Below, piece by piece: positions 22,131-53,166 of a stretch of 64,000 nucleotides of DNA (the first letter of the stretch is position 1; every line of letters begins with the position of its first letter). Source of the stretch: an uncultured Gammaproteobacteria bacterium (GTDB lineage: Bacteria > Patescibacteriota > Microgenomatia > Daviesbacterales > UBA10151); contig CAYNFQ010000003.1 of NCBI GenBank assembly GCA_964396715.1, forward strand, positions 565-64,564, given 5' to 3'. Under the pieces are notes generated by a model. That model was not told the origin of the DNA. It saw only the letters and a program-made list of their open reading frames with translations, and did not search any database. A program made the position numbers and the translations under genes.

Positions 22131-22940
22131 GTGATGAAGCAACCGATAATCACACTATCTTCTGACTTTGGAATTCAAAGTCAGGGAATTGGAAATATGG
22201 AAGGAGTAATTGCTCAAATTGCCCCTAATACTCGGGTTATTCATTTAATGCATGGAATACCCAATTTTGATATAAGAACTGCTGCCAGGACAATGGAGGT
22301 TGTAAATTTTATGCCAGTTGGTTTTCATGTTTGTATAGTTGATCCGGGTGTAGGTACAAAAAGAAGAGCAATTATAATTCAGGTTGAAAGAGGAGATTAC
22401 TTAATTGGGCCTGACAATGGAGTTCTTATTTCTGCAGTTAACATCTTAGGTGGAGCTAAAAAAATAGTAGAGATTACAAATCCCAAATATATGATAAAAC
22501 CAGTTTCACCAATTTTTCATGGTAGACATATTTTTGCTCCAGCTGCAGCATATCTGTCAAATGGTGTTCCAATAGAAGAATTTGGCCCTAGGCTAGAGTT
22601 TGATCAATTAGTTTCAGCTCCCTATTCAGAAGCTACTATTAAAGATGACATCATAAATTCTGAGGTTATAAACATTAATAAATTTGGCTCCCTCAATCTT
22701 AATATACTTCATTCAACCTGGGATAAATTAAATCTTTCCTCTCATCAGATTGTCCAGGTTACCTTTAAAGGTAAAACCATAAGTCTTCCTTTTGTAGAAA
22801 CTTTTGGGGCTGTTGAAGAAGGGAAACCTGTAATCCTTAAAGATGATTATGGAAGAGTGGAAATAGCCATTAATTTAGGAGATTTTGCAAAGAAATATAA
22901 TATCCGAGTTGGAGATTTTTTTGTAATCAAGAAACTTTAG
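22131..22940 (+). CDS. SAM hydroxide adenosyltransferase (DUF62 / fluorinase-like SAM hydrolase family)
   Basis: ITLSSDFG, CIVDPGVGTKRR and GPDNGVL motifs of the SAM-dependent halogenase/hydrolase family. Confidence 0.6.
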   Translation: MMKQPIITLSSDFGIQSQGIGNMEGVIAQIAPNTRVIHLMHGIPNFDIRTAARTMEVVNFMPVGFHVCIVDPGVGTKRRAIIIQVERGDYLIGPDNGVLISAVNILGGAKKIVEITNPKYMIKPVSPIFHGRHIFAPAAAYLSNGVPIEEFGPRLEFDQLVSAPYSEATIKDDIINSEVININKFGSLNLNILHSTWDKLNLSSHQIVQVTFKGKTISLPFVETFGAVEEGKPVILKDDYGRVEIAINLGDFAKKYNIRVGDFFVIKKL

Positions 22941-23242
22941 CGTTTTGGAGACTGTTTTTTAGCTCTTTTCTTAGCATAAACTTTAGTATGGTGTCCAATA
23001 TCTAGGAATCGGACTGTGGTTTTACTAGTCCATTTATAAATTATTCTTATACCGTTTGTGATACTAAATGCCCATTTTCCCGTCATTGGTTTTGTTAGTG
23101 GGTGACTATCTAAACGCGTGTCCTCTGGGTTTTTCTTAAACCAGATAATCCTTTTCTCAATTTCTTTATCTAAATCTGGATTCTCAAATACTGTGTTTTC
23201 TAAGGCTTTATCATAATTCCCAGTTTGCTTAACTTTTACCAT
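22937..23242 (-). CDS. RelE/YoeB-family type II toxin
   Basis: HPLTKPMTGKWAFSI...RIIYKW...FLDIGHHTKVY matches the RelE/YoeB/YafQ core. It overlaps the upstream RHH gene by 14 nt. Confidence 0.5.
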   Translation of the reverse strand: MVKVKQTGNYDKALENTVFENPDLDKEIEKRIIWFKKNPEDTRLDSHPLTKPMTGKWAFSITNGIRIIYKWTSKTTVRFLDIGHHTKVYAKKRAKKQSPKR

Positions 23243-23528
23243 GCCTTCTTTTTTCTACTCTTTTACGCAAATCACGGAAATAATTATGAACATCTTCTTC
23301 TGTTTCTAAAACAATATCGTTTTCTTCAGGTTCCTTCTCAGCCTGCAAAACTCTGTTCTCAAACCATCTTGGGAATCCATTTTCAGTAATTTCTTCTTCT
23401 TGATAAACAATTTTTCTTAGAGCATCCCGCACAAGCTCGGAAATAGAAGCATATCTTCGTTCTACCACCATTTTTTTGGCATCTTTGTACATTTCTTTTG
23501 GTAATGAAATGTTAACCGTAGTTGTCAT
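23229..23528 (-). CDS. Ribbon-helix-helix (ParD/CopG-like) antitoxin
   Basis: MTTTVNISLPKEMYKDAKKMVVERRYASISELVRDALRKI is the ParD-like RHH signature. Confidence 0.5.
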   Translation of the reverse strand: MTTTVNISLPKEMYKDAKKMVVERRYASISELVRDALRKIVYQEEEITENGFPRWFENRVLQAEKEPEENDIVLETEEDVHNYFRDLRKRVEKRRHGKS

Positions 23529-23586
23529 AGAGAATGATTATATTGTATGATATTCATACAAACTTTGTCAATTAACAGCATTGAAA

Positions 23587-24000
23587 TTAACGTTTTGGGG
23601 ACTGCTTTTTTGCCCTTGCTTTTCCGGCATGACCGTATTTTCTTCTTTCTTTAACCCTGGCATCACGCGTTAAAAGTCCCTCTTTTTTCAAAACTGTCCG
23701 CAAAGTTGGTTCTACTTTAGCAAGAGCCCTGGAAACTCCATGTATAACTGCCTCCAGTTGTGAAACCCTTCCTCCTCCTGTAACTTTTGCAGAAATTGTA
23801 TATTTACCAACTGTCTTTGTAATCTCCAAAGGTTTTTGATAAATCTTTTGAAAAATTGCTCCGGCAAAATACTGGGCAATTGGTTTTCCATTAACAGTAA
23901 TTTGTCCCTGGCCCGGAGAAATTCTCACCCTGGCCACTGCTTCTTTTCTTCTCCCTACAGTATTTACACCAATTCCTTTTTTTACAGCCTTTGGTTCCAT
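23587..24000 (-). CDS. rpsI: 30S ribosomal protein S9. The likely true start is MEPKAV at 24000; the ORF-track start at 24021 overlaps rplM.
   Basis: GRRKEAVARVRI...GGGRVSQLEAV...ends KKQSPKR. Confidence 0.9.
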   Translation of the reverse strand: MEPKAVKKGIGVNTVGRRKEAVARVRISPGQGQITVNGKPIAQYFAGAIFQKIYQKPLEITKTVGKYTISAKVTGGGRVSQLEAVIHGVSRALAKVEPTLRTVLKKEGLLTRDARVKERRKYGHAGKARAKKQSPKR

Positions 24001-39332: not shown

Positions 39333-40083
39333 CCTTTCCACTTAACCTTTCCACTGCCTCTTTAGTGATCAGTAACATGTCGTGTCTTAAGATCTCATAG
39401 GCATTTATCAAATCCGCAGGTAATGCACTCATTCCTGGAATATTCCTAACAGCTCTTACCACATTGTCCATCTTTTCTGCTGTAATGATTAATGCACTCG
39501 CAGATTTTTGTTTCTTGTCTGATGACTGCGGGCCCCCGAAGGGGAGAACGACTGACGACATTAACTTTACCATCTCTTTTGTTTTACCAGAAGCCTTTTC
39601 TATCCCTGATATTCCTAATATTCCCTTATTCCCCAACTTGTCAGATAAAGCAGCCATTAAAGCCGCTTTTTTCATTTTCTTGGGTAAATCTAATTTTACT
39701 TTGCGGGGTTTCGGCCCAAACACAATCCCTCCTCCCACAAAAATTGGGGCTCTGATCGCACCGTGTCTGGCTCTGCCTGTGCCTTTTTGTCTCTGGATTT
39801 TGGCTGTTGAACCGACCACCTCACCTCTGGTTTTGGTGTTACCTGGTTGAGTTTTTTGATTAGCTGTATAAACTCTTAAAGCCTGGGCTAGTAATTTTTT
39901 ATTAACCTCTCCTCCAAAAATTTCTTTAGGGAGTGATAAAGTCCCAGTTGATCTACCTGCTAGGGAATAAACTGGAACTGATAATTTTGTTTGTCGTTTA
40001 TCGTTTATCGTTTTTCGTTCTGCTTTTTGTGATTTTACGATAGACGATTTACGATTAACGATTAACGATTTCTTAACCGGCAT
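39316..40083 (-). CDS. rplD: 50S ribosomal protein L4, with an N-terminal extension encoded by inverted heptamer arrays and a C-terminus ...KVTSNK
   Basis: L4 core LSVPVYSLAGRSTG...TQPGNTKTRGEV. Confidence 0.9.
   Translation of the reverse strand: MPVKKSLIVNRKSSIVKSQKAERKTINDKRQTKLSVPVYSLAGRSTGTLSLPKEIFGGEVNKKLLAQALRVYTANQKTQPGNTKTRGEVVGSTAKIQRQKGTGRARHGAIRAPIFVGGGIVFGPKPRKVKLDLPKKMKKAALMAALSDKLGNKGILGISGIEKASGKTKEMVKLMSSVVLPFGGPQSSDKKQKSASALIITAEKMDNVVRAVRNIPGMSALPADLINAYEILRHDMLLITKEAVERLSGKVTSNK
39995..40071. repeat. Two oppositely oriented heptamer arrays (CGTTTAT-type and ACGATTA-type) encoding the N-terminal extension of L4
   Basis: Seen directly. Confidence 0.75.
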
Positions 40084-40855
40084 CTTGTACTCCCTCCTTC
40101 ACATCTGCCTTCTGACTCTCTGATCCACCGACTGCCTGGCTTGCTGAGTTTTCAGAGTTTTCCGGACTTTCTTCCTCCTCAGATGCCTTTTCCTCAGGCG
40201 GAGGAGTATAACCTTTAATCCTGCCAAGTTTTGTAATGGTAACCAATTCTCCGCTTGCGCCTGGCACTGCTCCTTTAATAACAACTAAATTATTTACTTT
40301 ATCCAGCCCCACAACTTCCAAATTCCTGGTTGAAACAGTGGCTGAGCCCATATGCCCTGCCATTTTCTTGCCTTTATAAACCCTGCCCGGAGTGGTGCCT
40401 GAACCAATTGCCCCTGGAGCGCGGTGCCTGTCTGATTGACCGTGAGTTTTAGGGCCTCCGTGAAATCCGTGTCTTCTGACACCGCCCTGAAAGCCTTTGC
40501 CTTTGGAGGTTCCTGTGACTTTGACAGCATCTCCAATTGAAAAAACCTGGTCAAGTTTTACTTCTTGTCCAGGTTTCAAATCTCCCCAATCTCCCTGATT
40601 ACCCTTAATCTCCCTAAACCAACGGATGGGTTGTTCTACCCCTATTTTTTTACCAAGTCCGAGTTGAGGTTTTTTTACAGACTTTTTTGTGCCGAGCCCC
40701 AGTTGGATCCCGTCATAGCCATCTTTGCCATCTTTACTCTTTAGTTGTGTTACTAAATTTGGCTGAATTTCCACCATAGTAGCTCCCACCCGTCTACCAC
40801 GGGAATCATAAGTACTGGTCATGTTTTTCTTAATTCCTAATAAACTGTTTATCAT
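40073..40855 (-). CDS. rplC: 50S ribosomal protein L3 (acidic C-terminal tail)
   Basis: GTKKSVKKPQ...L3 signature FQGGVRRHGF. Confidence 0.9.
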   Translation of the reverse strand: MINSLLGIKKNMTSTYDSRGRRVGATMVEIQPNLVTQLKSKDGKDGYDGIQLGLGTKKSVKKPQLGLGKKIGVEQPIRWFREIKGNQGDWGDLKPGQEVKLDQVFSIGDAVKVTGTSKGKGFQGGVRRHGFHGGPKTHGQSDRHRAPGAIGSGTTPGRVYKGKKMAGHMGSATVSTRNLEVVGLDKVNNLVVIKGAVPGASGELVTITKLGRIKGYTPPPEEKASEEEESPENSENSASQAVGGSESQKADVKEGVQDAG

Positions 40856-41071
40856 ATTTTTTGCACTAAAAAGAGTGAGGCCTTCGACTATACTCAGGCT
40901 CTCACTCAGTATCTCGCTTTTACACCGCCGTATCGGATTGCGACGCCAAGTCAGACTTGGCTGTCGAGTTTGACTCGACGCGCGATCAACTGAAAATGTA
41001 TCCGACTATAAATTAACCACTTAAGATGGTCATGTGCAGAAATTGTAGCAGAGAGCAAATTCAAATGCAAG
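40856..41071 (-). promoter_or_regulatory. Structured, GC-enriched leader upstream of rplC, containing two hairpins (gagtgagg...cctcactc and gtcgagtttgactcgac). Possible S10-operon-type autoregulatory leader.
   Basis: Two clear inverted repeats in an otherwise AT-rich genome, directly upstream of the rplC start. Confidence 0.3.
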
Positions 41072-44000
41072 CTAACTTTGTTTTCGGTAATACCAGAAGC
41101 TAAACAGAGCCGCCAAGGTAATAGTTAATATCACTAACCACTTATTTTTAATCAATGAATCAACCACAGTTGGTGTTTGTTGAAATGCTTGCGCTTCCCC
41201 TAATACCTCAGGTGTTTGAGTGGGTACATCGCTCTTTTTTACCTCTTGGGTAATTTCTGCCGAGGTGGTGGTCTCTCCCAAAACACCCGGGGCAAATCCT
41301 GCTGCCGGTTCGCTAACCACTGCGCCTTGTGGTGTGGCTGACAGTTCATTGGAAAAATCCCCCGGGGCGCAACCATTACCTGCTCTTGCCCTAAAATAAT
41401 AGGTAGTTCCTCCGGAAAGCCCCTGGACAGTATATGAAGAGGTTCCGGGACCACCAATATTGGGGTTACCATACTGTTGTTGCCCGGAGGTAAGTCCGTA
41501 AGTTGCCAGGTAATAGCTGACAGGATCTTTAGCTTTGCTCCAGTTTAAGATGACGCTATTTACTCCACCGATTGCAGACAGAAGAGTAGGTGCGCTGCCG
41601 GGTTTTGCATCAGAGCAAACAGGCGGCGTGCCGCCTCCGCCGGCAGAGGAAAGCGCCTGGGTGGTTGAACCAGCAGCAGATGAGGCTGCAACTGTGCGGG
41701 TGGTGGCATAATATGAGGCTTTGGTGGCTGTAAATGTACAAATTCCTGCAGCCACTGTACAAGTTGCCGGAGCCACAATCCCATCCGAAGTCCAGCCTGA
41801 AGAAGTATTGGTGGAGCGTACCACGTTGAGGGTTTGACCATTTAAGGAAGTACCTACAAAAATATTCAAAGTAATGGCCTGGCTAAATTCCAAACCAAGA
41901 TTGGGAACACCCCACTGCAAGGCCCCCTCAACCGTGGTACCTGAGCTAAATCCGGACAAAGCACCGCTTGAAACATTGGCTGCAGCCAGCAGGGTGGAGT
42001 CAATATTGCCGCCTCCTGCTTTGGAGATAGTGGTACCTGAAGGCAATATCACATTGCTGGTCCCACCAGTTACTGCCACTGTCATAGTCATCTGCTGATT
42101 GACATTGACTGATGGGGTAGCAGCCTGGTTGGTGGTACCAGTTGGCAGGGAAAAAATTCCGCTGGAGAAAAAGGTGGCCGGACTAAAATCAGTTGCAGAA
42201 ATTGTTGAGGTGCTCAGTGTGGTGCGGGCCTCATCCGTATAATAGGGCCTGTATTTGACATTATTACTCACGCTATCCCCTGTACCTCCTGAATTGGTGG
42301 AATGAGTGGGTCCACTTTGAGAACCCCACCAGTTGTGAGAAGCAGTGACCAGCGTTACCCCTGCTTCTGCAGTTACCCCATTTCCGTTATTTCCAGAAAT
42401 TTGCGAGTTTTTAATAGTAACATTGCCTCCATTAACCTGAACTGCTATATCGGCATTGGAAAAGTTGATCTTTTCAATCGTGACAGTGCCTGTGGTAATT
42501 GTTAAGGCTGGCTCTCCGCTTGTTTCCTCCCAGATGGTAGTATTGCCCGCTCCCTTAATGGTCAGGTTTTTGGAAACAGTAACCGCCTCATCAAAACTTC
42601 CGGCCAAAATATTAACTGTGCCATTACCCGCTACAGCATTAACTGCCCGCTGGATAGTCAGGAAAGGATTAGATGCTACTCCGCTGGCTGTATTGTCATC
42701 CCCGGTTGGGGAGACATAAACATTACTGTTGATGTCAAACTGGGAAAAATGGCTGGTGGTGAAAGTAAGTATGCCACCAAATTCTCCGGGAGTAAATGAT
42801 AAATCCCCCGAAATAGGATAATTTGAGCTGGATGGAGGGATTTCACTACCGCTGTCATCTTTAACAATCAGAGCTGGTGTATCTGTGATGCCCAAACTAT
42901 CCAGGCCGTACATGGCGAGCGTGGCACCGGCATTTTTCAAATCCTGGGCGGTTCGGGCATCAAAACCAATTTTTCCCGCCTCTACCATCTCCAGTTTACT
43001 GCCCAGGTTTTGCAACAAGGTTTTGGTATTTTGGCTGGTTAAATTTAGAGTGGCGCTAAAAGTGATTTTCCCTTTGCCTGCTTTTTCAAAATAGAGGCCG
43101 GATGCAGCCGAGGGATTGTCAAGATCACCCAAATTTGTCGTTATGCCGGAGGCATTGATAGTGGAAACCAAACTGGCTATGGAAGGAGCCGGCGAACCAT
43201 TAAACCAGCCTTTGGTGGGAGTTGCGGCAGTAGACCAGGTTGCACCACCATCAGCAGTTCTGGCAATTGATGATCCGGCAGCCGGATCAGAGGCGGATAC
43301 TGATTGAGCATTGACAATGGTCGAGCTTGATTTTTGATAAGTAACCTTGTCTATCTCTGATCCTGAATTATTTTTTAGGGTGATTCTGTCTCCGTCCCCA
43401 TTAGAACTAAGATTATTTAACCAAGCAGCGCCTGTATTTTCGTAGACCACAACCCCCTGGGCAGGAATAGTCCCCAGTCCAGAGAGGCTTTTGGTCGTAT
43501 TTGCCTCATCAACGAGTGTCCAGCCGGTCAGTGAAATGTCGGCATTTGTTTTATTAAAAAGCTCCACCCACTCGTTCTGACCCGCTGACGGATGATACAC
43601 AAACTCATTAATTACTACGCTGGCTGTGCTTTCATCAAAAGGAGTAGCCACCCCTGAGGCAATAGTCCCCACTACCACAAAGACGGTAAAATGATTAAGT
43701 CCTGTGATAGTCAGGGTTTTATCTCCAGGAGTGACCCCGCCCAAGGTAACAAAGCTTTGGCCGTCTTCCGAGGCTTTTACCTCCACATTGTCCACAGTGG
43801 GAGTAGGTAAGGTTAAGGTATATTCAAAAGTGCCGTCTTGCATATCAGAGGAGATATCATAAGCAGTCTTTGACAAGGCCCCACTTTCTGCCATCTGTTT
43901 ATCAGTTAAAATAATCTCTTTGATAGTTACTTTGCCTGGAGAATCTGGAAGTTTATTAAATTTAACTGTGACTTTACTATTTTGAGGAGCTGTATAGGTT

Positions 44001-44317
44001 TTATCCAAAACTACGTTATCTTGAGTGATTACCCCTCCATCTACTGCCTGCCAGTCAGAAACAGGCACTGGATTCTCAGAAGATGTAGCTGCAGAACCGG
44101 ATGCTTCAGCTGGTAATGGGCTGAGACTTGGGCTGGGTTGAGGATCGTCAGTTGTGGTGGCAGAGGGAGTAGCTTCTACATTTTCCTCTGTCACTATCTG
44201 GGCAGACGGAGAAGCTTCTTGGGCATAAACTGGAGAAATCATTACCGGAATAAAAGAATTAAGCAGCAGGGACAAACCTGCCACAACTGAAATTATTTTT
44301 TGTCTGAATTTGTACAC
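41072..44317 (-). CDS. Large cell-surface protein with a signal peptide, a lamin-tail (LTD) domain, right-handed beta-helix repeats, a fibronectin-III-like domain and a C-terminal TM anchor
   Basis: LTD signature INEFVYHPSAGQNEWVELFN; NosD/pectate-lyase-like repeats (VSKNLTIKGAGNTTI..., NVTIKNSQISGNNGNG); FN3-like YYFRARAGNG; C-terminal hydrophobic anchor WLVILTITLAALF. Confidence 0.6.
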   Translation of the reverse strand: MYKFRQKIISVVAGLSLLLNSFIPVMISPVYAQEASPSAQIVTEENVEATPSATTTDDPQPSPSLSPLPAEASGSAATSSENPVPVSDWQAVDGGVITQDNVVLDKTYTAPQNSKVTVKFNKLPDSPGKVTIKEIILTDKQMAESGALSKTAYDISSDMQDGTFEYTLTLPTPTVDNVEVKASEDGQSFVTLGGVTPGDKTLTITGLNHFTVFVVVGTIASGVATPFDESTASVVINEFVYHPSAGQNEWVELFNKTNADISLTGWTLVDEANTTKSLSGLGTIPAQGVVVYENTGAAWLNNLSSNGDGDRITLKNNSGSEIDKVTYQKSSSTIVNAQSVSASDPAAGSSIARTADGGATWSTAATPTKGWFNGSPAPSIASLVSTINASGITTNLGDLDNPSAASGLYFEKAGKGKITFSATLNLTSQNTKTLLQNLGSKLEMVEAGKIGFDARTAQDLKNAGATLAMYGLDSLGITDTPALIVKDDSGSEIPPSSSNYPISGDLSFTPGEFGGILTFTTSHFSQFDINSNVYVSPTGDDNTASGVASNPFLTIQRAVNAVAGNGTVNILAGSFDEAVTVSKNLTIKGAGNTTIWEETSGEPALTITTGTVTIEKINFSNADIAVQVNGGNVTIKNSQISGNNGNGVTAEAGVTLVTASHNWWGSQSGPTHSTNSGGTGDSVSNNVKYRPYYTDEARTTLSTSTISATDFSPATFFSSGIFSLPTGTTNQAATPSVNVNQQMTMTVAVTGGTSNVILPSGTTISKAGGGNIDSTLLAAANVSSGALSGFSSGTTVEGALQWGVPNLGLEFSQAITLNIFVGTSLNGQTLNVVRSTNTSSGWTSDGIVAPATCTVAAGICTFTATKASYYATTRTVAASSAAGSTTQALSSAGGGGTPPVCSDAKPGSAPTLLSAIGGVNSVILNWSKAKDPVSYYLATYGLTSGQQQYGNPNIGGPGTSSYTVQGLSGGTTYYFRARAGNGCAPGDFSNELSATPQGAVVSEPAAGFAPGVLGETTTSAEITQEVKKSDVPTQTPEVLGEAQAFQQTPTVVDSLIKNKWLVILTITLAALFSFWYYRKQS

Positions 44318-44336
44318 TCAGGGATTATCCTACATC

Positions 44337-44377
44337 TTAACTTCAATATCAACGCCGGCTGGGATTTCTAAATGCAT
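44337..44377. repeat. Duplicate of the rpsJ 3-prime end (would encode [15 protein letters not shown]). It is about 85% identical to 45035-45077, and all differences are synonymous.
   Basis: Alignment by eye of the two segments. Confidence 0.75.
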
Positions 44378-44480
44378 TTACTTTCTAATTTGATGGTAGA
44401 CTGCAATAAACTGTCCAGTAAGCTCCCTTTGTATATCTTTTGGGAGAGTCTTCCCTAATTCTTTTAGATACTTCTTACCA

Positions 44481-44643
44481 TTAAAAACCATTAAAAATTT
44501 CCAGTAAAACTGGTTCACCATCCTTATCAACACTGACTACAGAATTTTCTGTCTCATAAGAATCATCAATCTTCTTATTGGAAAGTTGAATCATTAAAAT
44601 ATCAACATCTGGACTGTAACTAATCCTATTTTGTACTTTCATA
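44481..44643 (-). pseudogene. DUF2283-family small gene interrupted by a +1 frameshift (MKVQNRISYSPDVDILMIQLSQ* then out-of-frame ...NKKIDDSYETENSVVSVDKDGEPVLLEIFNGF)
   Basis: Manual translation. The extra C in ctttcccaataag breaks the frame. Confidence 0.35.
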
Positions 44644-44729
44644 TCTACCTCTCAATAAAATTATATCACGGACAAAAATTTCGCGATCGAGAATATAATG
44701 AAAATAAAATGCCCACCCTTGGGGTGGAA

Positions 44730-45014
44730 TTATATTGAAGGGTGTCTAAGTCTCCTCAGTGCTCTGTGTTCAAGACCCCACACAGATGAGGGAGTTATCT
44801 GCATCTCTTGGCCAATATCCGCAAGCGTCCTTGACTGTCCAGTTTTCAAACCAAACCGTTCGCGAAGAACAAAGCTTTGTTTAGTTGTAAGTCTACTTAA
44901 TACTTCTTCTACTTGTTGCTTTAATTTTCCTCTATCTCGAGGATGACTTTGTAAAAATGCTTCCAGTGCTGCATCTTCTTGATCTTGTCTTCCAAAATTT
45001 GGACCTTCTACCAT
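44730..45014 (-). CDS. Standalone sigma-70 region-4 (RpoD C-terminal) fragment, 94 aa
   Basis: LTTKQSFVLRERFGLKTGQSRTLADIGQEMQITPSSVWGLEHRALRRLRHPS is collinear with RpoD region 4.1/4.2 (REAKVLRMRFGI...[28 protein letters not shown]). Confidence 0.55.
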   Translation of the reverse strand: MVEGPNFGRQDQEDAALEAFLQSHPRDRGKLKQQVEEVLSRLTTKQSFVLRERFGLKTGQSRTLADIGQEMQITPSSVWGLEHRALRRLRHPSI

Positions 45015-45031
45015 ATTAACTTCATTTTATA

Positions 45032-45340
45032 CTACATTTTAACCTCAATGTCAACTCCGGCTGGGATCTCAAGATGCATTAGGGAATCAATGGTTTTTTG
45101 GGTGGGCTCAACAATATCCAAAACTCTTTTGTGGGTTTTTATTTCAAAAGCTTCTCTGGAGTCTTTATCCGTATGAGGAGAGGTTAAAACTGTAATTCTT
45201 TCTGTTTTGGTAGGTAAGGGAATGGGGCCGACAATTTTAGCACCGGTTCGAAGGGCTGTATCCAACAGGGACTCACAGGTGTGATCCAACACCCGATGGT
45301 CATAACTTTTCAGTTTTACTCTGATTCTTCCTCTTGGCAT
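45032..45340 (-). CDS. rpsJ: 30S ribosomal protein S10
   Basis: [15 protein letters not shown]...[13 protein letters not shown]. Confidence 0.9.
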
Positions 45341-48092: not shown

Positions 48093-48196
48093 AAACTCAG
48101 CTTAAAGCAAGTTCGTGACTTTGTCAAATTTAATGCTCCACCCTACCTGTAAATCCTGAGGCTTCAATTATTTTGGCAGTGATTTGAGGATTTAAT

Positions 48197-48748
48197 TTAT
48201 TTTTTCGCTTTAATAAAGGGTAAGAAATCTTCTCTTTTCAAAAGTCTTGATTCTGAACAATTGGCTATCATAGCCAGAGATGGCTTATGAGAAAAACCAA
48301 TATATTCCACAGTTTTACCTTTTTCCCTGGCTTTTTTAATTGCCGGCAAAAGATCTGTATCGGAAGAAACCAAAATAATGTGGTCACATAAATCTTCATA
48401 GGTGGCAACTAGCATATCTACGGCCATATTCACATCCACACCTTTTTCATGAAATTTACCATCAGATTTTAACAGATATCCAAGAGAGTATCTAAAACCG
48501 TTTTTCTTAAGATGGGCCAATAACTTTCGCTGATCTTTATACATTTTGAAAGAGCGTTTAGAACCATCTGTCCTGACTACTCCTACATAGTATATTGCTC
48601 CAACAATTTCCTTCTTACCAGACACCATTTTTGCAAAACCAGAGAAATTAAAGTTAAGTAAGTTGTGCAATTCTAAATCCTTCAACTTAAAGTAGAAATT
48701 ACTACCATCAATAAGAATTACACAACGCTGTTTTTTCATAAAATCCAT
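48197..48748 (-). CDS. NYN-domain (LabA/DUF88-like) protein, putative RNase
   Basis: CVILIDGSNFYF...ILVSSDTDLLPAIKKA matches the PIN-like NYN/LabA signature. Confidence 0.5.
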   Translation of the reverse strand: MDFMKKQRCVILIDGSNFYFKLKDLELHNLLNFNFSGFAKMVSGKKEIVGAIYYVGVVRTDGSKRSFKMYKDQRKLLAHLKKNGFRYSLGYLLKSDGKFHEKGVDVNMAVDMLVATYEDLCDHIILVSSDTDLLPAIKKAREKGKTVEYIGFSHKPSLAMIANCSESRLLKREDFLPFIKAKK

Positions 48749-48850
48749 TATACAGCGTTTTGCTCAAAAAAATCCTGCGAAGACCTTTCGGTGTCGCAGG
48801 AGATTTAAGAATTATATATTAACACATTTATACGGATTTTGTCAAAACTT

Positions 48851-50995
48851 TTAATGTTCAACTCTGCCTGTAAATCCTGAGGCTTCGATGATCTTTTGGG
48901 TAATTTGGGCTGGTACCGGCTCATAGTGATCTGCTTCCATATAATAGGTGGCTCTGCCTTGGGACATGGACCTGATAGCTGTTGCATAACCATGCATCTC
49001 AGCTAGTGGTACTAATGCTATGACTACCCTGGCATTGCCACGAGACTCAGAAGATAAAATCTGCGCCCGCTTTGCGGATAAATCACCAATAATCTCCCCC
49101 AAAAACTCCTCCGGTGTGGTCACCTCCACCTTCATGATTGGTTCCAGTAAAATCATGTCCGCTTTTTTAGCAGCCTCTGAAAGTCCTAAAGAAGCGGCAA
49201 TTTTAAAGGCTATTTCAGATGAATCTACATCATGAAAAGATCCGTCATAAACAGTCACCTTAATATCAGTCACCGGGAAACCTGCTAAAATTCCGGTGTC
49301 TTCTTTCTCAATCACACCTTTCTCAATTGGCGGAATAAACTCTCTGGGAATTGCTCCGCCCACAATCTCTGAGACAAATTCCCTCCCTTGTCCGCGGGGC
49401 AAAGGCTCAATTCGGAGTAAACAGTGGCCATACTGTCCCCTGCCTCCGGTCTGACGGATATATTTACCTTCACCTTCTGCCATTTTTTGGATGGTTTCTT
49501 TATAAGCCACCTGGGGTTGTCCCACATTAGCCTCTACCTTAAATTCTCTTTTCATCCTGTCTACCAGAATCTCCAGCTGCAGCTCACCCATGCCGGCAAT
49601 AATAGTCTGCCCTGTTTCCGGATCTGATTTGACTCTGAAGGTGGGATCCTCTTCGGCTAATCTGTTTAAGGCATAACCCAGCTTTTCCTGATCACTCTTT
49701 GTTTTAGGCTCAATTGCTAAAGAAATCACCGGATCGGGAAAGGTGATTGATTCCAAAATAATCGGTGCAGTTTCATCACAAAGCGTATCTCCGGTGATGG
49801 TATCTTTTAATCCCACAGCAGCTACAATTTCTCCGGCAAATGCCTCATCAATTTCCTCCCGGTCGTTGGCATGCATTAACAAAAGTCTGCCTACCCGCTC
49901 TTTAATCTGTTTGGTGGAATTATAAACATAGGTACCACTCTTTAATGTGCCAGAATATACCCGAATATAGGTTAATTTTCCTACGTGCGGATCCACCTGA
50001 ATTTTAAAAGCTAAAGCAGAAAGCGGGGCTTGTGGGTCTGCTTTTCTGACCTCTTCTTGCTGGGTTTGGGGGCTAATGCCGGTTATTTCATTAATATCTT
50101 GGGGGGAAGGCAGATATTCCACCACTGAGTCAAGCATCAATTGCACCCCTTTATTTCTTAAAGAAGATCCTGCCAAACATGGCACAATTTTATTATCAAT
50201 GACCGCTTTTCTCAGGGCCTTTTTCAACTCCTCAACAGAAATTTCTTGTCCTCCCAAATACTTCTCCATTAAGACATCATCTGTCCCGGCAATTTCCTCC
50301 ACCAATTTCTCCCTATACTTTTCCACATCCTCTTTCATTTCAGCCGGGATTTCCACTGCATTAAACTTAGCGCCGGTTTCATCACCTTCCCAGATATAGG
50401 CTTTTTTACTCAGCAAATCCACCACTCCGCTAAATTGGTTCTCCTTACCAATTGGCAAGTTATAGGCAAGAGCATTGGCTCCTAATCTGTCTCTGGCTGA
50501 GAGGATGGTACCATGAAAATCAGCTCCCACCACATCCATTTTGTTGGAAAAAGCAATTAAGGGCACTTTATATTTATTGGCCTGTCTCCAGACAGTTTCG
50601 GTCTGGGACTGCACGCCCGAGGATGAATCCAACACAATCACTCCTCCGTCTAAAACCCTCAGTGATCTTTCCACCTCGGCTGTAAAATCAACATGACCGG
50701 GAGTATCAATCAAATTGATTCTCACTTCCTGATCTTTAAATAGATTATCATCTCGCCTGCATGTCCAAAAAGTGGTGATGGCTGCCGAAACAATAGTGAT
50801 GCCACGCTCTCTTTCCTGCTCCATCCAGTCAGTGACGGTGGTACCCTCATCAATATTGCCGATCTTATATGATCTGCCTGTATAAAACAGGATCCTTTCC
50901 GTGGTGGTGGTTTTCCCGGCATCAATATGGGCAATAATGCCGATATTTCTGATTCTATCTAAGGGAAAATCTCTTTTGGTTTTAGTTACTGGCAT
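48851..50995 (-). CDS. fusA: Elongation factor G
   Basis: [30 protein letters not shown], domains II-V. Confidence 0.95.
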
Positions 50996-51389: not shown

Positions 51390-51929
51390 TCAAATGTTAG
51401 CTAACTGATAAACCCAGCCTGGTTGCCATTTAAAGGGGACTGTTACTAATTCTTTGAGAGATTTTCCATTTATCCAGTGCTCCAATCCATATTGAGTAGC
51501 TCTATGCCCAATTATTAATACACTTATGCTACGACCGTGATATAAATGTAGGTAATCTAAAAAACTTTTCATTCTTTTTAAACAATCCTCATATGATTCC
51601 CCATTTGGAAAAGGGATAGATATATGCTTCACTTTAACTGGATCAACTTCATCTGATGGATATTGAGTTAAATCCCCATAATCACATTCTCTTAATCTTT
51701 TGTCTTTAATAATTGGAATTTTGTTTCCAAAAGCAATCTCTGCAGTTTTATATGATCTTTGTAAATCAGAAACAAAGATTACATCAAATTCTTGATCTTT
51801 GTATCTTCCACCAAGCTCTTTTGCTTGTTGTTCACCAAGTGGTGAAAGTGCTACATCAAAATGTCCAGAAAAAAGATGTTTCTCATTATCAAAACTTGTG
51901 GCATGAGCTTCAAAAATTATGATCACCAT
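51390..51929 (-). CDS. Histidine-phosphatase-superfamily (PGAM-like) protein with a non-canonical first motif (EAHAT instead of RHGE)
   Basis: IFEAHATSFDN...SDLQRSYKTAEI...IGHRATQ. Confidence 0.45.
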   Translation of the reverse strand: MVIIIFEAHATSFDNEKHLFSGHFDVALSPLGEQQAKELGGRYKDQEFDVIFVSDLQRSYKTAEIAFGNKIPIIKDKRLRECDYGDLTQYPSDEVDPVKVKHISIPFPNGESYEDCLKRMKSFLDYLHLYHGRSISVLIIGHRATQYGLEHWINGKSLKELVTVPFKWQPGWVYQLANI

Positions 51930-51933
51930 GAGG

Positions 51934-52410
51934 TTATCTAGCAGAACTTTCTTCTACTGTCACTGTCACTTCTAGAGGTATTTCTGCAACTATCTTGAGT
52001 AGTTTTTGTCCTTCTTCTTTAATACTTACTTGAAAAATATAGTCTCCACTACCTTGTACTTTAATTCCTGAAATTTTAACTCTAGTTCTCATTCTTTTTG
52101 TACCTGCTGGAATGACTATTTCTTTAATATCTTTATTAATTTCTTCTCCTTTATGATTAATTAGTGCTAGTTCTTGTTCAAACTTTACTTCTTCCTCTTT
52201 TTTATTATCTCTAGTATAGAAACTTACCATTTCATAGTTTATTGGTACTATAGCTTCTAGTTTTTGATCCTTATTTTGAATATTTGTTGGCTTAAGATTA
52301 ACTTGTAATGCTTCTAGGACATTAACAATACTTAAATTGTTATCATCCTGGTTAATTATGCTTTCTTTACATAGTACAGACCAAATATGCTTAATCATGC
52401 TATTACCCAT
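51934..52410 (-). CDS. Hypothetical protein
   Basis: ORF track only. Confidence 0.25.
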   Translation of the reverse strand: MGNSMIKHIWSVLCKESIINQDDNNLSIVNVLEALQVNLKPTNIQNKDQKLEAIVPINYEMVSFYTRDNKKEEEVKFEQELALINHKGEEINKDIKEIVIPAGTKRMRTRVKISGIKVQGSGDYIFQVSIKEEGQKLLKIVAEIPLEVTVTVEESSAR

Positions 52411-52814
52411 CTTATGTCACTATAATCTTCACCAGGTGGATATTGAACCGAAATCTTGCTAACTGGTAATTCTCCCATTTGTTTTAATTCCTCGCTGCTT
52501 GCAGAGAATGCGTGGGTTTCAAAATAGTGGTGCTGCATAGATAAACTACTTTCAGGAGAAGTAATTATTTTATGAATATTATCTAATTCGTACTGAGAAA
52601 AATTAGAAAATTCACCTTCTCTCAATCGCTTTATGTCTTTTAAACTTAAACTAAGCTTCTCTGCTAATTCTTTATCACTATCATTGTTAGCGTCAATTAA
52701 TTCTTGTAGTTTAATAGATATATCGAGCGCACGGTCAGCTCTTTCAAATCTTTCTTTAAATTCTTTATCTTTAAGCTGTTTTTCCAAATCTCTATCGAAA
52801 CTACCTTTTGACAT
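52395..52814 (-). CDS. HigA-like HTH antitoxin (XRE family)
   Basis: N-terminal LKDKEFKERFERA and the helix-turn-helix region DKELAEKLSLSLKDIKRLREGE; overlaps the upstream toxin gene. Confidence 0.4.
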   Translation of the reverse strand: MSKGSFDRDLEKQLKDKEFKERFERADRALDISIKLQELIDANNDSDKELAEKLSLSLKDIKRLREGEFSNFSQYELDNIHKIITSPESSLSMQHHYFETHAFSASSEELKQMGELPVSKISVQYPPGEDYSDIRWVIA

Positions 52815-53166
52815 ATTTCCTTCTTTCTTTAAATGCCTTTAGCAATTTTTTAGCATATTTTAAATCATCCTTACGTAATTTATTATACTGTTTCCTAATT
52901 CCTCCAAGCAACCATATATCTCTCTTTTCTCCAAAAGTCCAAAAAACTCTTACGATATCTCTATCATATCTAGCTCGAATTGCGTATAAATCATCATCTA
53001 TATGTTCTGTCAAAGCTTTTCCATGATTAGATCTATTCCGAACTCTATTTATTTTAACCTTAAGTTGAGCAACAAGATCTGGATGAATTTTTTCAAGCTC
53101 ATCTAGAAAATATTTTACCTCTTGTTTTCCATTCTCGTCTGTTTCGTACTCGATTTTAAATTCCAT
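52801..53166 (-). CDS. HigB-like toxin (Gp49/RelE superfamily)
   Basis: YFLDELEKIHPDLVAQLKVKINRVRNRSNHGKALTEHIDDDLYAIRARYDRDIVRVFWTFGEKRDIWLLGGIRK is collinear with the Gp49-like HigB family. Confidence 0.55.
   Translation of the reverse strand: MEFKIEYETDENGKQEVKYFLDELEKIHPDLVAQLKVKINRVRNRSNHGKALTEHIDDDLYAIRARYDRDIVRVFWTFGEKRDIWLLGGIRKQYNKLRKDDLKYAKKLLKAFKERRKYVKR

Follow-up and report, generated by a model that had tools for sequence, protein, structure and literature searches.

The window, that is, the whole 64,000-nucleotide stretch of DNA that was analysed, carries the 3′ end of rpsJ twice. The two copies are probably the left and right junction scars of an integrase-less cassette of about 0.65 kb that inserted in the last 15 rpsJ codons and moves by gene-end recombination. 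Two other essential genes of the window bear the same scar, which is also found in many related bacteria of the Candidate Phyla Radiation (CPR), and in a pair of near-identical related genomes a unit bounded in this way is precisely present in one and absent from the other.

Results

The rpsJ region and its duplicated 3′ end

All genes around rpsJ are on the minus strand, and the putative insertion site is preceded by tuf-rpsJ. The features of the region are the following:

45032 to 45340, minus strand: rpsJ (ribosomal protein S10), intact, 102 aa (Pfam Ribosomal_S10, 7.8e-36)
45027 to 45080, minus strand: upstream repeat copy (repeat search), the S10 3′ end in use (last 15 codons, stop and 5 nt)
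44730 to 45014, minus strand: stand-alone sigma-70 region-4 (sigma4) ORF, intact, 94 aa, beginning 18 nt after the rpsJ stop (Pfam Sigma70_r4, 1e-10; GC3 0.23)
44650 to 44738, minus strand: conserved non-coding spacer, with a terminator-like hairpin at 44712-44728 (terminator scan) and then an extended -10 promoter, TGATATAAT, at 44660-44668
44378 to 44642, minus strand: DUF2283 pseudogene (Pfam DUF2283, 4.5e-10)
44325 to 44378, minus strand: downstream repeat copy, the putatively displaced S10 3′ end (15-codon mini-ORF 44333-44377, stop 44330-44332, 5 nt beyond)
41072 to 44317, minus strand: LTD/fn3 surface protein gene, 1081 aa, signal peptide (Pfam LTD 4.2e-19, fn3 3.3e-8; GC3 0.41, core-gene-like)
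40856 to 41071, minus strand: conserved rplC promoter and leader (TTGCAT at 41065-41070, TGcTACAAT at about 41042-41050, terminator hairpin and T-run at 40868-40907)
40073 to 40855, minus strand: rplC (L3), first gene of the downstream ribosomal-protein operon (Pfam Ribosomal_L3, contig annotation)

A repeat search identified a direct repeat of 54 nt (44325-44378 and 45027-45080, period 702) with 46 of 54 positions identical, made up of the last 15 rpsJ codons, the stop and 5 nt beyond it. An 11-nt core, ATCCCAGCCGG, is exactly identical in both copies. The mini-ORF encodes residues identical to the S10 C-terminus and then stops, which confirms the 15 duplicated residues described in a previous reading of the sequence alone. 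That reading counted 6 differences in 41 nt, all synonymous; the count is correct for its narrower range, and from the ATG to the stop the copies differ at 7 of 48 nt, in 6 codons, all of them synonymous. The in-use end is followed by TAG-TATAAA...ATGGTAGAA, as it is at the related loci L025, L104 and L181 (loci of relatives are designated here by L and a number).

The S10 protein is identical on three contigs of the same population, and the arrangement is identical in at least 10 independent Logan assemblies of this population. The duplication is therefore not an assembly artefact. Exact-protein look-ups of S10, the sigma4 ORF and the LTD protein revealed no alternative arrangement in the population, and no empty-site or circular form of the rpsJ cassette was found among its contigs, which are all identical; the contig breaks in these assemblies are due to SNPs or adapter. 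Rfam searches gave nothing credible for this region of the window or for the spacers of L050 and L165.

Genes between the S10-end copies

The insert between the repeats consists of the sigma4 ORF and the broken DUF2283 gene. Its GC3 is 0.23, compared to 0.36-0.42 in the flanking core genes and the LTD gene. The sigma4 ORF aligns to SigA/RpoD residues ~297-361, including LRKLRHPS (PDB 7ckq_F, E 9e-13), and its -35 recognition helix reads TPSSVWG where SigA/RpoD has TRERIRQ. Six of the seven members of its family match Sigma70_r4 in Pfam and none of the seven matches region 2. Judged from these sequences, the ORF is a stand-alone region-4 protein of a family, neither a sigma factor nor a pseudogene fragment; the earlier assignment to RpoD region 4 was thus right, and its description as a gene fragment was not. 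A word-index search with the ORF returned itself alone, and the 30 matches obtained by tblastn against phage records are a raw count that tells nothing for or against a phage origin. Homologues are found directly after rpsJ at eight other loci, which makes 9 of about 66 Daviesbacteria-like loci in all; this frequency also fits long residence behind rpsJ and to that extent speaks against a mobile cassette. The protein might recognise the TTGAC(A) box made by the S10 Val-Asp-Ile codons at the site.

The spacer at 44650-44738 is 86% identical to L017 2406-2484 and is also kept in L012 and L025. In L017 and L109 the matching region runs into an ORF that is the upstream partner of DUF2283, and the spacer appears to be the promoter region of a toxin-antitoxin-like pair. 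This partner is present in L017, L109, L113, L181 and L182, with both it and DUF2283 intact in the last four, and has been precisely deleted in the window. It has no Pfam match, on which ground a DUF4258 identity was dropped, and we infer that it is the toxin of the pair. The DUF2283 gene had been thought to be broken by a 1-nt insertion. It is indeed broken, by a 10-nt tandem duplication, TTTTTAATGG twice, at 44478-44497; with one TTTTTAATGG unit deleted, the ORF is again open over 84 aa and shares 90% identity with intact homologues of the same length, of which there are more than 100 (up to 90% identical). Its stop codon, TAA (44378-44380), abuts the ATG of the S10 fragment. The rpsJ cassette of the window is decaying: the partner ORF is deleted, DUF2283 is frameshifted and the sigma4 ORF is intact.

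The downstream flank

As the earlier reading had stated, a surface-protein gene lies past the second copy and separates rpsJ from rplC by 4.2 kb (4176 nt). Before the insertion, this LTD gene was probably located directly behind rpsJ. None of the LTD homologues found elsewhere adjoins rpsJ, and they are of no help in polarising the event. The leader at 40856-41071 is kept directly upstream of rplC in about 30 relatives and has a consensus structure with compensatory changes; it matched no Rfam family. The comparison of rpsJ-rplC spacing that had been suggested showed that the gap is an inter-operon spacer of 180-4176 nt among Daviesbacteria relatives and that the ORFs inside it are mostly unrelated. 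Among the large ORFs in the relatives' gaps that were read by eye, one each resembles a membrane protein, nuclease, P-type ATPase, SPFH protein, Hsp70-like protein or methyltransferase, and none resembles a recombinase.

S10-end fragments in related genomes

S10-end fragments of the same kind were found at 12 of 159 related rpsJ loci. The bounded units measure 0.04-2.3 kb, and the left edge of the duplication varies: it lies at codon 85, 88, 92 or 94, and the fragments start at profile positions 2, 8, 10, 20 and 25-28. Within the family of cassettes that end in DUF2283 the edge is constant at codon 88. The junction between the DUF2283 stop and S10 Met88 is the same in the window, L113, L181 and, in decayed form, L109, and it is followed by different sequences: the LTD gene in the window, ORF219 in L113, sigma4 in L181 and the rplC leader in L109. 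In L181, an S10-end-TATAAA-sigma4 unit like that of the window has itself been displaced by a newer cassette.

The metagenome contigs L141 and L142 are 99.6-99.7% identical and their sole difference is a 337-bp cassette, with a single 98-aa ORF that has no Pfam match, bounded by a 30-nt S10 end. The nucleotide markers in the copies are reciprocal (GCA..GTG, GCG..GTA and GCA..GTA), and the downstream copy retains the original downstream flank. These patterns fit recombination within the repeat; the difference could be a precise loss instead of a gain. Both contigs also contain a distal, more decayed S10 fragment.

At three loci (L060, L134 and L165) the S10 end is duplicated without inserted genes, with 37-84 nt between the copies. 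The sequence-only reading had named this pattern as one that would count against an inserted element. It does argue against a gene-carrying island, but not against insertion, since in L134 all seven differing codons are synonymous.

The same scar at fusA, rpsI and rpsG

Two further instances were found in the window:

48129 to 48907, minus strand: fusA 3′ end repeated around an NYN gene (copies 48850-48907 and 48129-48186)
22937 to 23619, minus strand: rpsI (S9) end, ...RAKKQSPKR*, repeated (copies 23587-23619 and 22937-22969)

The fusA repeat (repeat search) has 58 nt, 79% identity and a period of 721, and its copies differ by nine synonymous codons and one non-synonymous codon. Between them is an NYN-domain gene (48197-48748; Pfam NYN 2.6e-21). 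Fragments of the fusA end occur at 12 further loci, 13 with the window. An RHH antitoxin ORF (23229-23528) lies ahead of a RelE/ParE-like ORF (22937-23242), and the distal rpsI copy (22937-22969) forms the in-frame end of the latter; the two rpsI copies show five synonymous and no non-synonymous differences in nine codons. In this region, Pfam matched S9 (7.5e-39) and, above the cut-off, RHH_1, and the RelE/ParE-like toxin matches were weak. A scar at the rpsG end was observed in L051 and L118. The cargo at the other loci is mainly toxin-antitoxin pairs, plus NYN, and includes PIN-like genes.

Divergence between the copies

Pooled over 10 independent fragments (L113 corrected by hand), the rpsJ codon differences are 49 synonymous to 4 non-synonymous, and the pooled fusA codon differences are 49 to 6. 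This overwhelming excess of synonymous changes indicates that both ends of each pair diverged inside functional genes of different genomes. As for which end is the incoming one, the stranded copy is more similar than the in-use copy to the rpsJ ends of relatives that do not carry the cassette (39.0 versus 37.6 of 45). For the in-use copy, the best-matching rpsJ ends are those of the sigma4 carriers L104 and L025 (41 of 45), and the body of rpsJ is closest to L012. These affinities suggest that the in-use end, 45027-45080, arrived with the insert; the differences behind this assignment are small (41 versus 37-39 of 45) and come from phylogenetically non-independent loci. Mapping of breakpoints or mosaics in rpsJ and fusA was uninformative, the relatives being about 80-91% identical in nucleotides.

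Discussion

Proposed mechanism

We propose that the cassette consisted of the stand-alone sigma4 gene and a two-gene toxin-antitoxin-like module ending in DUF2283, now a remnant, together with a carried S10 3′ end. After insertion, rpsJ would read into the cassette-borne end (45027-45080) and its former end (44325-44378) would be stranded downstream, still joined to the LTD gene. The movement would take place by recombination across the short shared gene-end sequence. Most likely, DNA would be taken up and then recombined by the host, either homologously or in a homology-facilitated way, with the conserved gene acting as the long left arm and the gene-end fragment brought by the cassette acting as a right arm that is portable. 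Natural competence and the recombination of incoming DNA are features of Patescibacteria (PMC10633639), whose horizontally acquired regions prominently include ribosomal-protein genes and tuf (PMC12455944). Alternatively, an excised circle might enter by a Campbell-type crossover. At an empty site, rpsJ would terminate in a hybrid end made from both copies, with GATAATCCCTGAGTG and the LTD gene behind it, and the circle junction would be the DUF2283 stop, one S10 end, TATAAAATGAAGTTAATATG and the sigma4 ORF. Such short arms (30-58 nt, with about 85% identity) make poor RecA substrates, a point against recombination of this kind, and an unknown trans-acting recombinase is a possible mover.

If insertion always takes place at the in-use end, the rpsJ-proximal cassette should be the newest and the distal fragments older. 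Recombination between the repeats may usually remove a fragment before it has decayed, which would explain why most fragments show synonymous differences only. The short-class fragments that are near-identical to the resident end (L027, with 27 of 27 positions identical, and L060, with 33 of 34 and 42 nt between the copies) could have arisen by a different, local mechanism.

Alternative explanations

The sequence-only reading interpreted the region as a decayed integrative element that had targeted the 3′ end of rpsJ. The insertion with a replacement rpsJ end stands, in view of L141/L142, the affinities of the two ends and the GC3 of the insert, but the integrase-island nature does not. Direct repeats at a gene 3′ end with the gene reconstituted are a hallmark of such elements, whether island or prophage remnant, and the 11-nt identical core agrees with such an element. 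Nevertheless, the bounded segments of the 12 rpsJ and 13 fusA loci yielded no recognisable integrase or other recombinase (by Pfam for the window ORFs and selected cargo, and by eye elsewhere), and intact versions with an integrase, for which a search at rpsJ had been suggested, were likewise not recognised at the 12 loci. The recent cassette of L141 is 337 bp long with a single 98-aa ORF, the left edges of the repeats vary, and the scars at fusA and rpsI in the window and at rpsG elsewhere contradict an rpsJ-specific target; a scan of viral contigs with S10 found no S10 end on any of them. An element with its own tyrosine or serine integrase, now reduced to its cargo, is improbable. We give equally little credence to the reverse polarity, according to which sigma4 and DUF2283 were resident and the fragment came with the LTD gene, by a one-sided anchor in rplC and an illegitimate join, from a donor that had LTD behind rpsJ. 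Sigma4-like genes right after rpsJ are common, and L012 and L098, the closest relatives, show collinearity with the in-use end and its TATAAA, as this explanation would have it; but L113, L181 and L109, which have no LTD gene downstream, share with the window the rpsJ codon at which DUF2283 joins the fragment, the GC3 of LTD is host-like and that of the insert is not, the fragment resembles clade-typical rpsJ ends, and the variable unit in L141/L142 is the rpsJ-proximal one. Least probable of all is a local tandem duplication of the rpsJ end by slippage or template switching, followed by neutral drift of the useless copy. The near-identical short-class copies with almost no spacer would agree with it, but the probability that all differing codons are synonymous under such drift is about 2e-3 for the window (6/0) and about 1e-4 for L047 (10/0), the pooled ratio points the same way, and the TCG and AGT codons found for one serine in L165 cannot be interconverted by synonymous steps.

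The fragment may also have been kept for a function, as the promoter of the displaced gene or as a translated coupling mini-ORF. A promoter-like sequence, TTGATA-N17-GATAAT, is located at 44352-44324 within the downstream copy, 6 nt upstream of the LTD start codon, and matches at 10 of 12 positions. The S10 Val-Asp-Ile codons spell TTGAC/TA, many Daviesbacteria loci have TATAAT-like hexamers behind the rpsJ stop, both fusA copies have a TTGACA box after the stop, and at most loci the next gene starts 2-14 nt after the S10 fragment. In the window, coupling would agree with the stop-start TAAATG shared with DUF2283 and with a mini-ORF stop 12 nt before the LTD start codon. On the other hand, the promoter scan showed no enrichment over shuffled sequences (9 found versus 7.9 expected), a promoter would conserve nucleotides and not amino acids, the -10 motif is clade-specific and the L109 fragment is decayed. 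A function is unlikely as the explanation and would at best account for retention, not origin; it is compatible with an inserted cassette. Reading the in-use copy as a promoter, TTGACA-N17-TATAAA, was rejected, as the conserved final T is missing and the promoter scan did not report it. About as unlikely is a nuclease-driven replacement of the gene end, a kind of intron-less homing in which a cargo or associated nuclease cuts the cassette-free end and repair copies the cassette along with a resistant synonymous end. The architecture is that of the fungal mitochondrial duplications discussed below, and the cargo includes the NYN nuclease-fold gene at fusA, PIN-like genes and RelE/ParE-type toxins. 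Pfam detected in the window's cassettes Sigma70_r4, DUF2283, NYN, RHH_1 and weak RelE/ParE-like matches, but no LAGLIDADG, GIY-YIG or HNH domain; the rpsJ cassette holds an HTH protein and an antitoxin-like remnant alone, and the ORF of L141 matches nothing in Pfam.

Comparison with known systems

Islands, ICEs and prophages integrate at the 3′ ends of tRNA or protein genes and bring a replacement end, which leaves attL/attR direct repeats. The cassettes described here resemble them in that the incoming DNA supplies the 3′ end, the old end becomes the far-side direct repeat and the copies differ by genome of origin. They differ in having no recognised integrase, a size of 0.04-2.3 kb instead of many kb and a variable repeat edge, and in that the scar occurs at several essential genes (rpsJ, fusA, rpsI and rpsG) in one lineage. 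Integron gene cassettes are similarly very small, mostly of one or two genes, promoter-dependent, often toxin-antitoxin, and inserted at one fixed site with the newest proximal. Their repeat is attC, whereas here it is a coding gene end, and no attC-like hairpin was detected in either copy on either strand (MFE -0.5 to -3 kcal/mol, z-scores +0.3 to +1.5).

Homology-facilitated illegitimate recombination was reportedly described in naturally transformable bacteria by de Vries and Wackernagel in 2002. A long one-sided anchor together with a join at short or micro-homology would give the same topology without an enzyme encoded by the element. In the CPR cassettes, unlike in that process, the right join is a homologous stretch of 30-58 nt that travels with the cassette, and the event is repeatable. 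The term is also used in PMC6382021. In Neisseria, minimal mobile elements are cassettes of whole genes that vary in content, are flanked by conserved genes and lack mobility genes (Saunders and Snyder 2002, as defined in PMC3787668), and their exchange is ascribed there to transformation and homologous recombination in the flanks. The gene content between rpsJ and rplC is likewise variable between the same conserved flanks, without mobility genes. Unlike in Neisseria, the right flank is a carried duplicate of the left gene's own end, so that insertion is independent of the downstream DNA and duplicates the gene end, something that the definition as quoted in PMC3787668 does not include.

In the mitochondria of Endoconidiophora, partial C-terminal duplications of cob and atp6 lie beside free-standing homing-endonuclease ORFs (PMC6279837). 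There too, the native end gives way to a foreign 3′ coding segment and a mobile ORF, and persists as a fragment farther downstream; in contrast, the CPR cassettes are in a bacterial chromosome, have no recognisable homing endonuclease and carry mainly toxin-antitoxin cargo. A similar C-terminal duplication is said to have been described by Paquin et al. in 1994 for Allomyces atp6-ORF360.

Significance

In a small literature search, neither integration at rpsJ nor gene-end duplication in CPR was found to have been described. More broadly, and only tentatively, the CPR/Patescibacteria of the Microgenomates group may carry an unrecognised class of integrase-less mobile cassettes whose site is the carried last 10-20 codons of an essential translation gene (S10, EF-G, S9 or S7). 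The cargo of such a class would be mainly toxin-antitoxin pairs, and also stand-alone sigma-region-4 and NYN genes. The carried end would permit insertion behind the same gene in any related genome and use of its high expression, with the gene rebuilt, and stacked displaced ends would be a dated record of successive insertions. Portable essential-gene homology would then be a route by which accessory genes, especially toxin-antitoxin, enter reduced CPR genomes without element-encoded recombinases. It would also explain the foreign genes found throughout the str/S10 ribosomal-protein region of these organisms, which is normally among the most stable bacterial regions. The idea can be tested in naturally competent Saccharibacteria. 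The signature, a stop-anchored gene-end duplicate with synonymous-only differences, can be searched genome-wide and orders insertions in time. In practice, the ribosomal-protein, EF-G and EF-Tu genes used as CPR phylogenetic markers may carry mosaic 3′ ends.

Results

The window was traced to contig JACPUL010000002.1 of GCA_016192255.1, a Candidatus Daviesbacteria metagenome-assembled genome of the Candidate Phyla Radiation. The 3' end of rpsJ is present twice in the window, and a cassette of about 0.65 kb lies between the two copies. On the minus strand, the gene order is fusA, an NYN gene, ORF286, tuf, rpsJ, a 94-aa sigma-70 region-4 ORF (sigma4), DUF2283, an LTD/fn3 surface-protein gene, rplC, rplD and onward.

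Features of the window
45032-45340, minus strand: rpsJ; its last 15 codons and stop occur again at 44330-44377
44730-45014, minus strand: sigma4, directly after rpsJ
40856-41071: rplC promoter and leader (leader about 150 nt, terminator hairpin 40868-40907)
48850-48907, minus strand: 3' end of fusA, repeated at 48129-48186; the copies flank an NYN-domain gene (48197-48748)
23587-23619, minus strand: rpsI (S9) end RAKKQSPKR*, whose second copy, 22937-22969, forms the in-frame C-terminus of a RelE/ParE-like ORF

A repeat search returned a 54-nt DNA repeat, 44325-44378 (the fragment) against 45027-45080 (the in-use copy), with 46/54 identical positions and a period of 702. The structure was identical in at least 10 independent assemblies of the same population. 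From ATG to stop the copies differ at 7 nucleotides in 6 codons, all synonymously, which bears out the duplication described in the sequence-only reading. Local duplication followed by drift was excluded, since neutral evolution of the stranded copy would leave only synonymous codon differences with a probability of about 2e-3 in the window and about 1e-4 in L047, an analogous locus (L-numbers designate rpsJ loci fetched from relatives). The copies therefore diverged as parts of working rpsJ genes, i.e., in different genomes.

About 190 nt directly upstream of rplC are conserved and consist of a promoter (TTGCAT...TGnTACAAT) and a leader with a terminator hairpin at its end. They are kept in about 30 related loci, and the hairpin shows compensatory base changes in several pairs. 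Thus, rplC is the first gene of a separate operon, and the stretch that follows rpsJ lies between two operons. The leader, which had no Rfam family matches and includes an extra hairpin in the window and L026, looks like an undescribed attenuator-type leader of the rplC-rplD operon. Comparison of the rpsJ-rplC spacing across relatives, as the sequence-only reading had suggested, gave 180 nt to 4.2 kb in Daviesbacteria, with mostly unrelated intervening ORFs.

For comparison, rpsJ loci were fetched from species-representative genomes (80) and from metagenomes (80). A second S10 end was found downstream of rpsJ in 12/159 loci (the window, L040, L047, L050, L056, L060, L113, L134, L141, L142, L165 and L181), and L109 has a decayed remnant. 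Pooled over 10 independent rpsJ fragments, with the L113 counts corrected by hand, the codon differences between fragment and resident end were 49 synonymous to 4 non-synonymous. In L027 and L060, where a short fragment hardly differs from the resident end, it may stem from a different, local process.

Two loci, L141 and L142, agree at 99.6-99.7% of positions over stretches of 390 and 1585 nt. An additional 337 nt in L141 comprise a 30-nt S10 end, a 7-nt spacer, an ORF of 98 aa and a further 6 nt, so that the 30-nt sequence has two copies in L141 and one in L142. The markers are reciprocal (GCA..GTG in the in-use copy of L141, GCG..GTA in its fragment and GCA..GTA in L142), and the downstream copy in L141 retains the original downstream flank. 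The repeat counts, markers and flank indicate that a cassette bounded by S10 ends was gained or precisely lost, with the crossover in a 17-nt identical stretch. A second, more distal and more decayed fragment (2 non-synonymous changes) is common to both loci; the unit nearest to rpsJ is the young, variable one.

Cassettes related to that of the window were found in other arrangements, in which a partner ORF precedes DUF2283 in a toxin-antitoxin-like pair. The order in L113 is rpsJ, a sigma4-like ORF, an 87-aa partner ORF, DUF2283, S10 fragment and an unrelated ORF219; in L113 and the window the DUF2283 stop overlaps the fragment's ATG, codon 88. L181 contains rpsJ, ORF126, DUF2283a, an S10 fragment (4 synonymous, 0 non-synonymous differences), TATAAA, sigma4, partner ORF, DUF2283b and the rplC leader. 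Its S10-end-TATAAA-sigma4 unit, like the in-use one of the window, was displaced by a newer insertion, and its DUF2283b is 90% identical to the restored window protein. L109 contains ORF162, partner ORF, DUF2283, the decayed fragment and the rplC leader. These orders show that the S10 fragment goes with the DUF2283 end of the cassette regardless of the downstream gene, which rules out its arrival with the surface-protein gene.

The window cassette is decaying: alignment with L017 and L109 showed that its partner ORF was precisely deleted, and DUF2283 is frameshifted, while the sigma4 ORF is intact. The lesion in DUF2283, previously read as a 1-nt insertion, is a 10-nt tandem duplication (44478-44497); when one unit is removed, the frame reads through as an 84-aa ORF with 90% identity to intact homologues. 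Nor is sigma4 a gene fragment. Its alignment to SigA/RpoD region 4 extends as far as the C-terminal LRKLRHPS, with an altered -35 recognition helix (TPSSVWG replaces TRERIRQ). Homologues of 88-125 aa in 8 other loci start -3 to +49 nt from the rpsJ stop; 6/7 tested passed Sigma70_r4, and region 2 is absent from all. Together they form a family of stand-alone region-4 proteins that is diverging yet maintained. In Daviesbacteria such ORFs (88-165 aa) directly follow rpsJ in the window, L016, L024, L025, L040, L042, L047, L104 and L113, and by Pfam annotation in L181 and L186. In the L042 member, VDIEVK occurs in frame and may derive from an S10 remnant that the ORF absorbed. Another Daviesbacteria genome of the same sample series (L186, GCA_016183245.1, and L182-L185) has rpsJ, sigma4, DUF2283, a 1027-1056-aa GDSL-lipase-like secreted protein and rplC, an arrangement paralleling the window, where the LTD protein stands in the lipase position; a palindrome, CACGCCGGCGTG, follows the DUF2283 stop in place of a clear S10 fragment.

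Modest signals in the same direction suggest that the in-use end came with the cassette and that the fragment is the former end, which preceded the surface-protein gene. Similarity to the rpsJ ends of 31 relatives lacking sigma4 averaged 39.0/45 for the stranded copy and 37.6/45 for the in-use copy. The latter is nearest to the sigma4 carriers L104 and L025 (41/45), and the rpsJ body to L012. GC3 was 0.23 in the insert genes, 0.39 in rpsJ, 0.36 in tuf, 0.42 in fusA and 0.41 in the surface-protein gene.

The same scar occurs at other genes. The fusA case, found by the repeat search of the window, shows 9 synonymous and 1 non-synonymous codon differences. Fragments of the fusA end are present in 12 further loci, with cargo that includes Phd/ParE pairs, DUF5615-PIN pairs, NYN and other small genes; over all 13 loci together, 49 differences are synonymous and 6 non-synonymous. 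The rpsI and rpsG cases were detected when all loci were scanned with stop codons as anchors. The RelE/ParE-like ORF with the S9-end tail comes after an RHH antitoxin ORF directly downstream of rpsI, and the S9-end copies have 5 synonymous and 0 non-synonymous differences. In L051 (3704/3772) and L118 (2246/2309) a second copy of the S7 C-terminus KAFAHFRW* lies 63-68 nt downstream of rpsG, making rpsG the fourth essential gene with a gene-end duplicate. The scar is thus not specific to rpsJ, the target that had been proposed. Further insertions lie between rpsG and fusA of the str operon (window ~51390-53166), where the contig annotation lists a Gp49/HigB-like toxin gene, 2 unannotated ORFs, a His_Phos_1 gene and a GreA-N-like 74-aa ORF; no gene-end duplicate was detected in this segment.

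Discussion

The sequence-only reading proposed a decayed integrative element. The insertion scar and the carried replacement end agree with it; the lack of a recognised integrase, edges that are not fixed and the scars at other genes do not. The data establish the topology, the descent of the two ends from different genomes, the recurrence of the scar and the precise gain or loss of a cassette. From these we infer that the cassettes move by recombination across the gene end they carry. The simplest route would be uptake of DNA from a relative already bearing the cassette, with a long homologous crossover in tuf-rpsJ and a short one between the donor fragment and the recipient's own gene end; alternatively, an excised circle could enter by a single crossover. 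Patescibacteria show natural competence and recombine the DNA they take up (PMC10633639), and their horizontally acquired regions prominently include tuf and genes for ribosomal proteins (PMC12455944). A recombinase acting in trans may instead drive the movement; none was recognised in any bounded segment (Pfam for window ORFs and selected cargo, ORFs elsewhere read by eye). Single-stranded hairpin folding of the repeats was not found, and a viral-contig scan found no S10 end. A nuclease-driven, homing-like process may also be responsible. In fungal mitochondria, cob and atp6 have partial C-terminal duplications adjacent to free-standing endonuclease ORFs (PMC6279837); the present cassettes mirror that layout but have no recognisable endonuclease.

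The outcome matches that of islands which restore the 3' end of the gene they enter, but the integrase that defines such islands was not recognised and the edges here are not fixed. Neisseria minimal mobile elements (PMC3787668) likewise lack mobility genes and have variable content between conserved genes, to which the present cassettes add a carried duplicate of the flank. Integron arrays are alike in the size of their cassettes, in carrying toxin-antitoxin genes and in having the newest cassette proximal, but the cassettes here have no attC. A small literature search found no published account of cassettes bounded by gene ends. The window rpsJ locus is one instance of a wider Microgenomates pattern, apparently undescribed, in which small integrase-less cassettes lie between duplicate 3' ends of essential genes for translation.

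The L050 contig (SAG AM-311-M21) is a self inverted duplicate with the rpsJ region on both strands, probably a chimera that arose when the single-cell genome was amplified. In L050 (4600-4903) and L165 (772-885), from two distant lineages, the spacers that separate the true S10 end from a short fragment have a common, conserved element, GCTCCATAAGCCG...GGCGAGTGGTAAG...GGGGCAGG. This element had no match in Rfam; its GGGGCA can pair with an upstream TGCCCC, and it may represent either a structured small RNA or a mobile unit without coding capacity.
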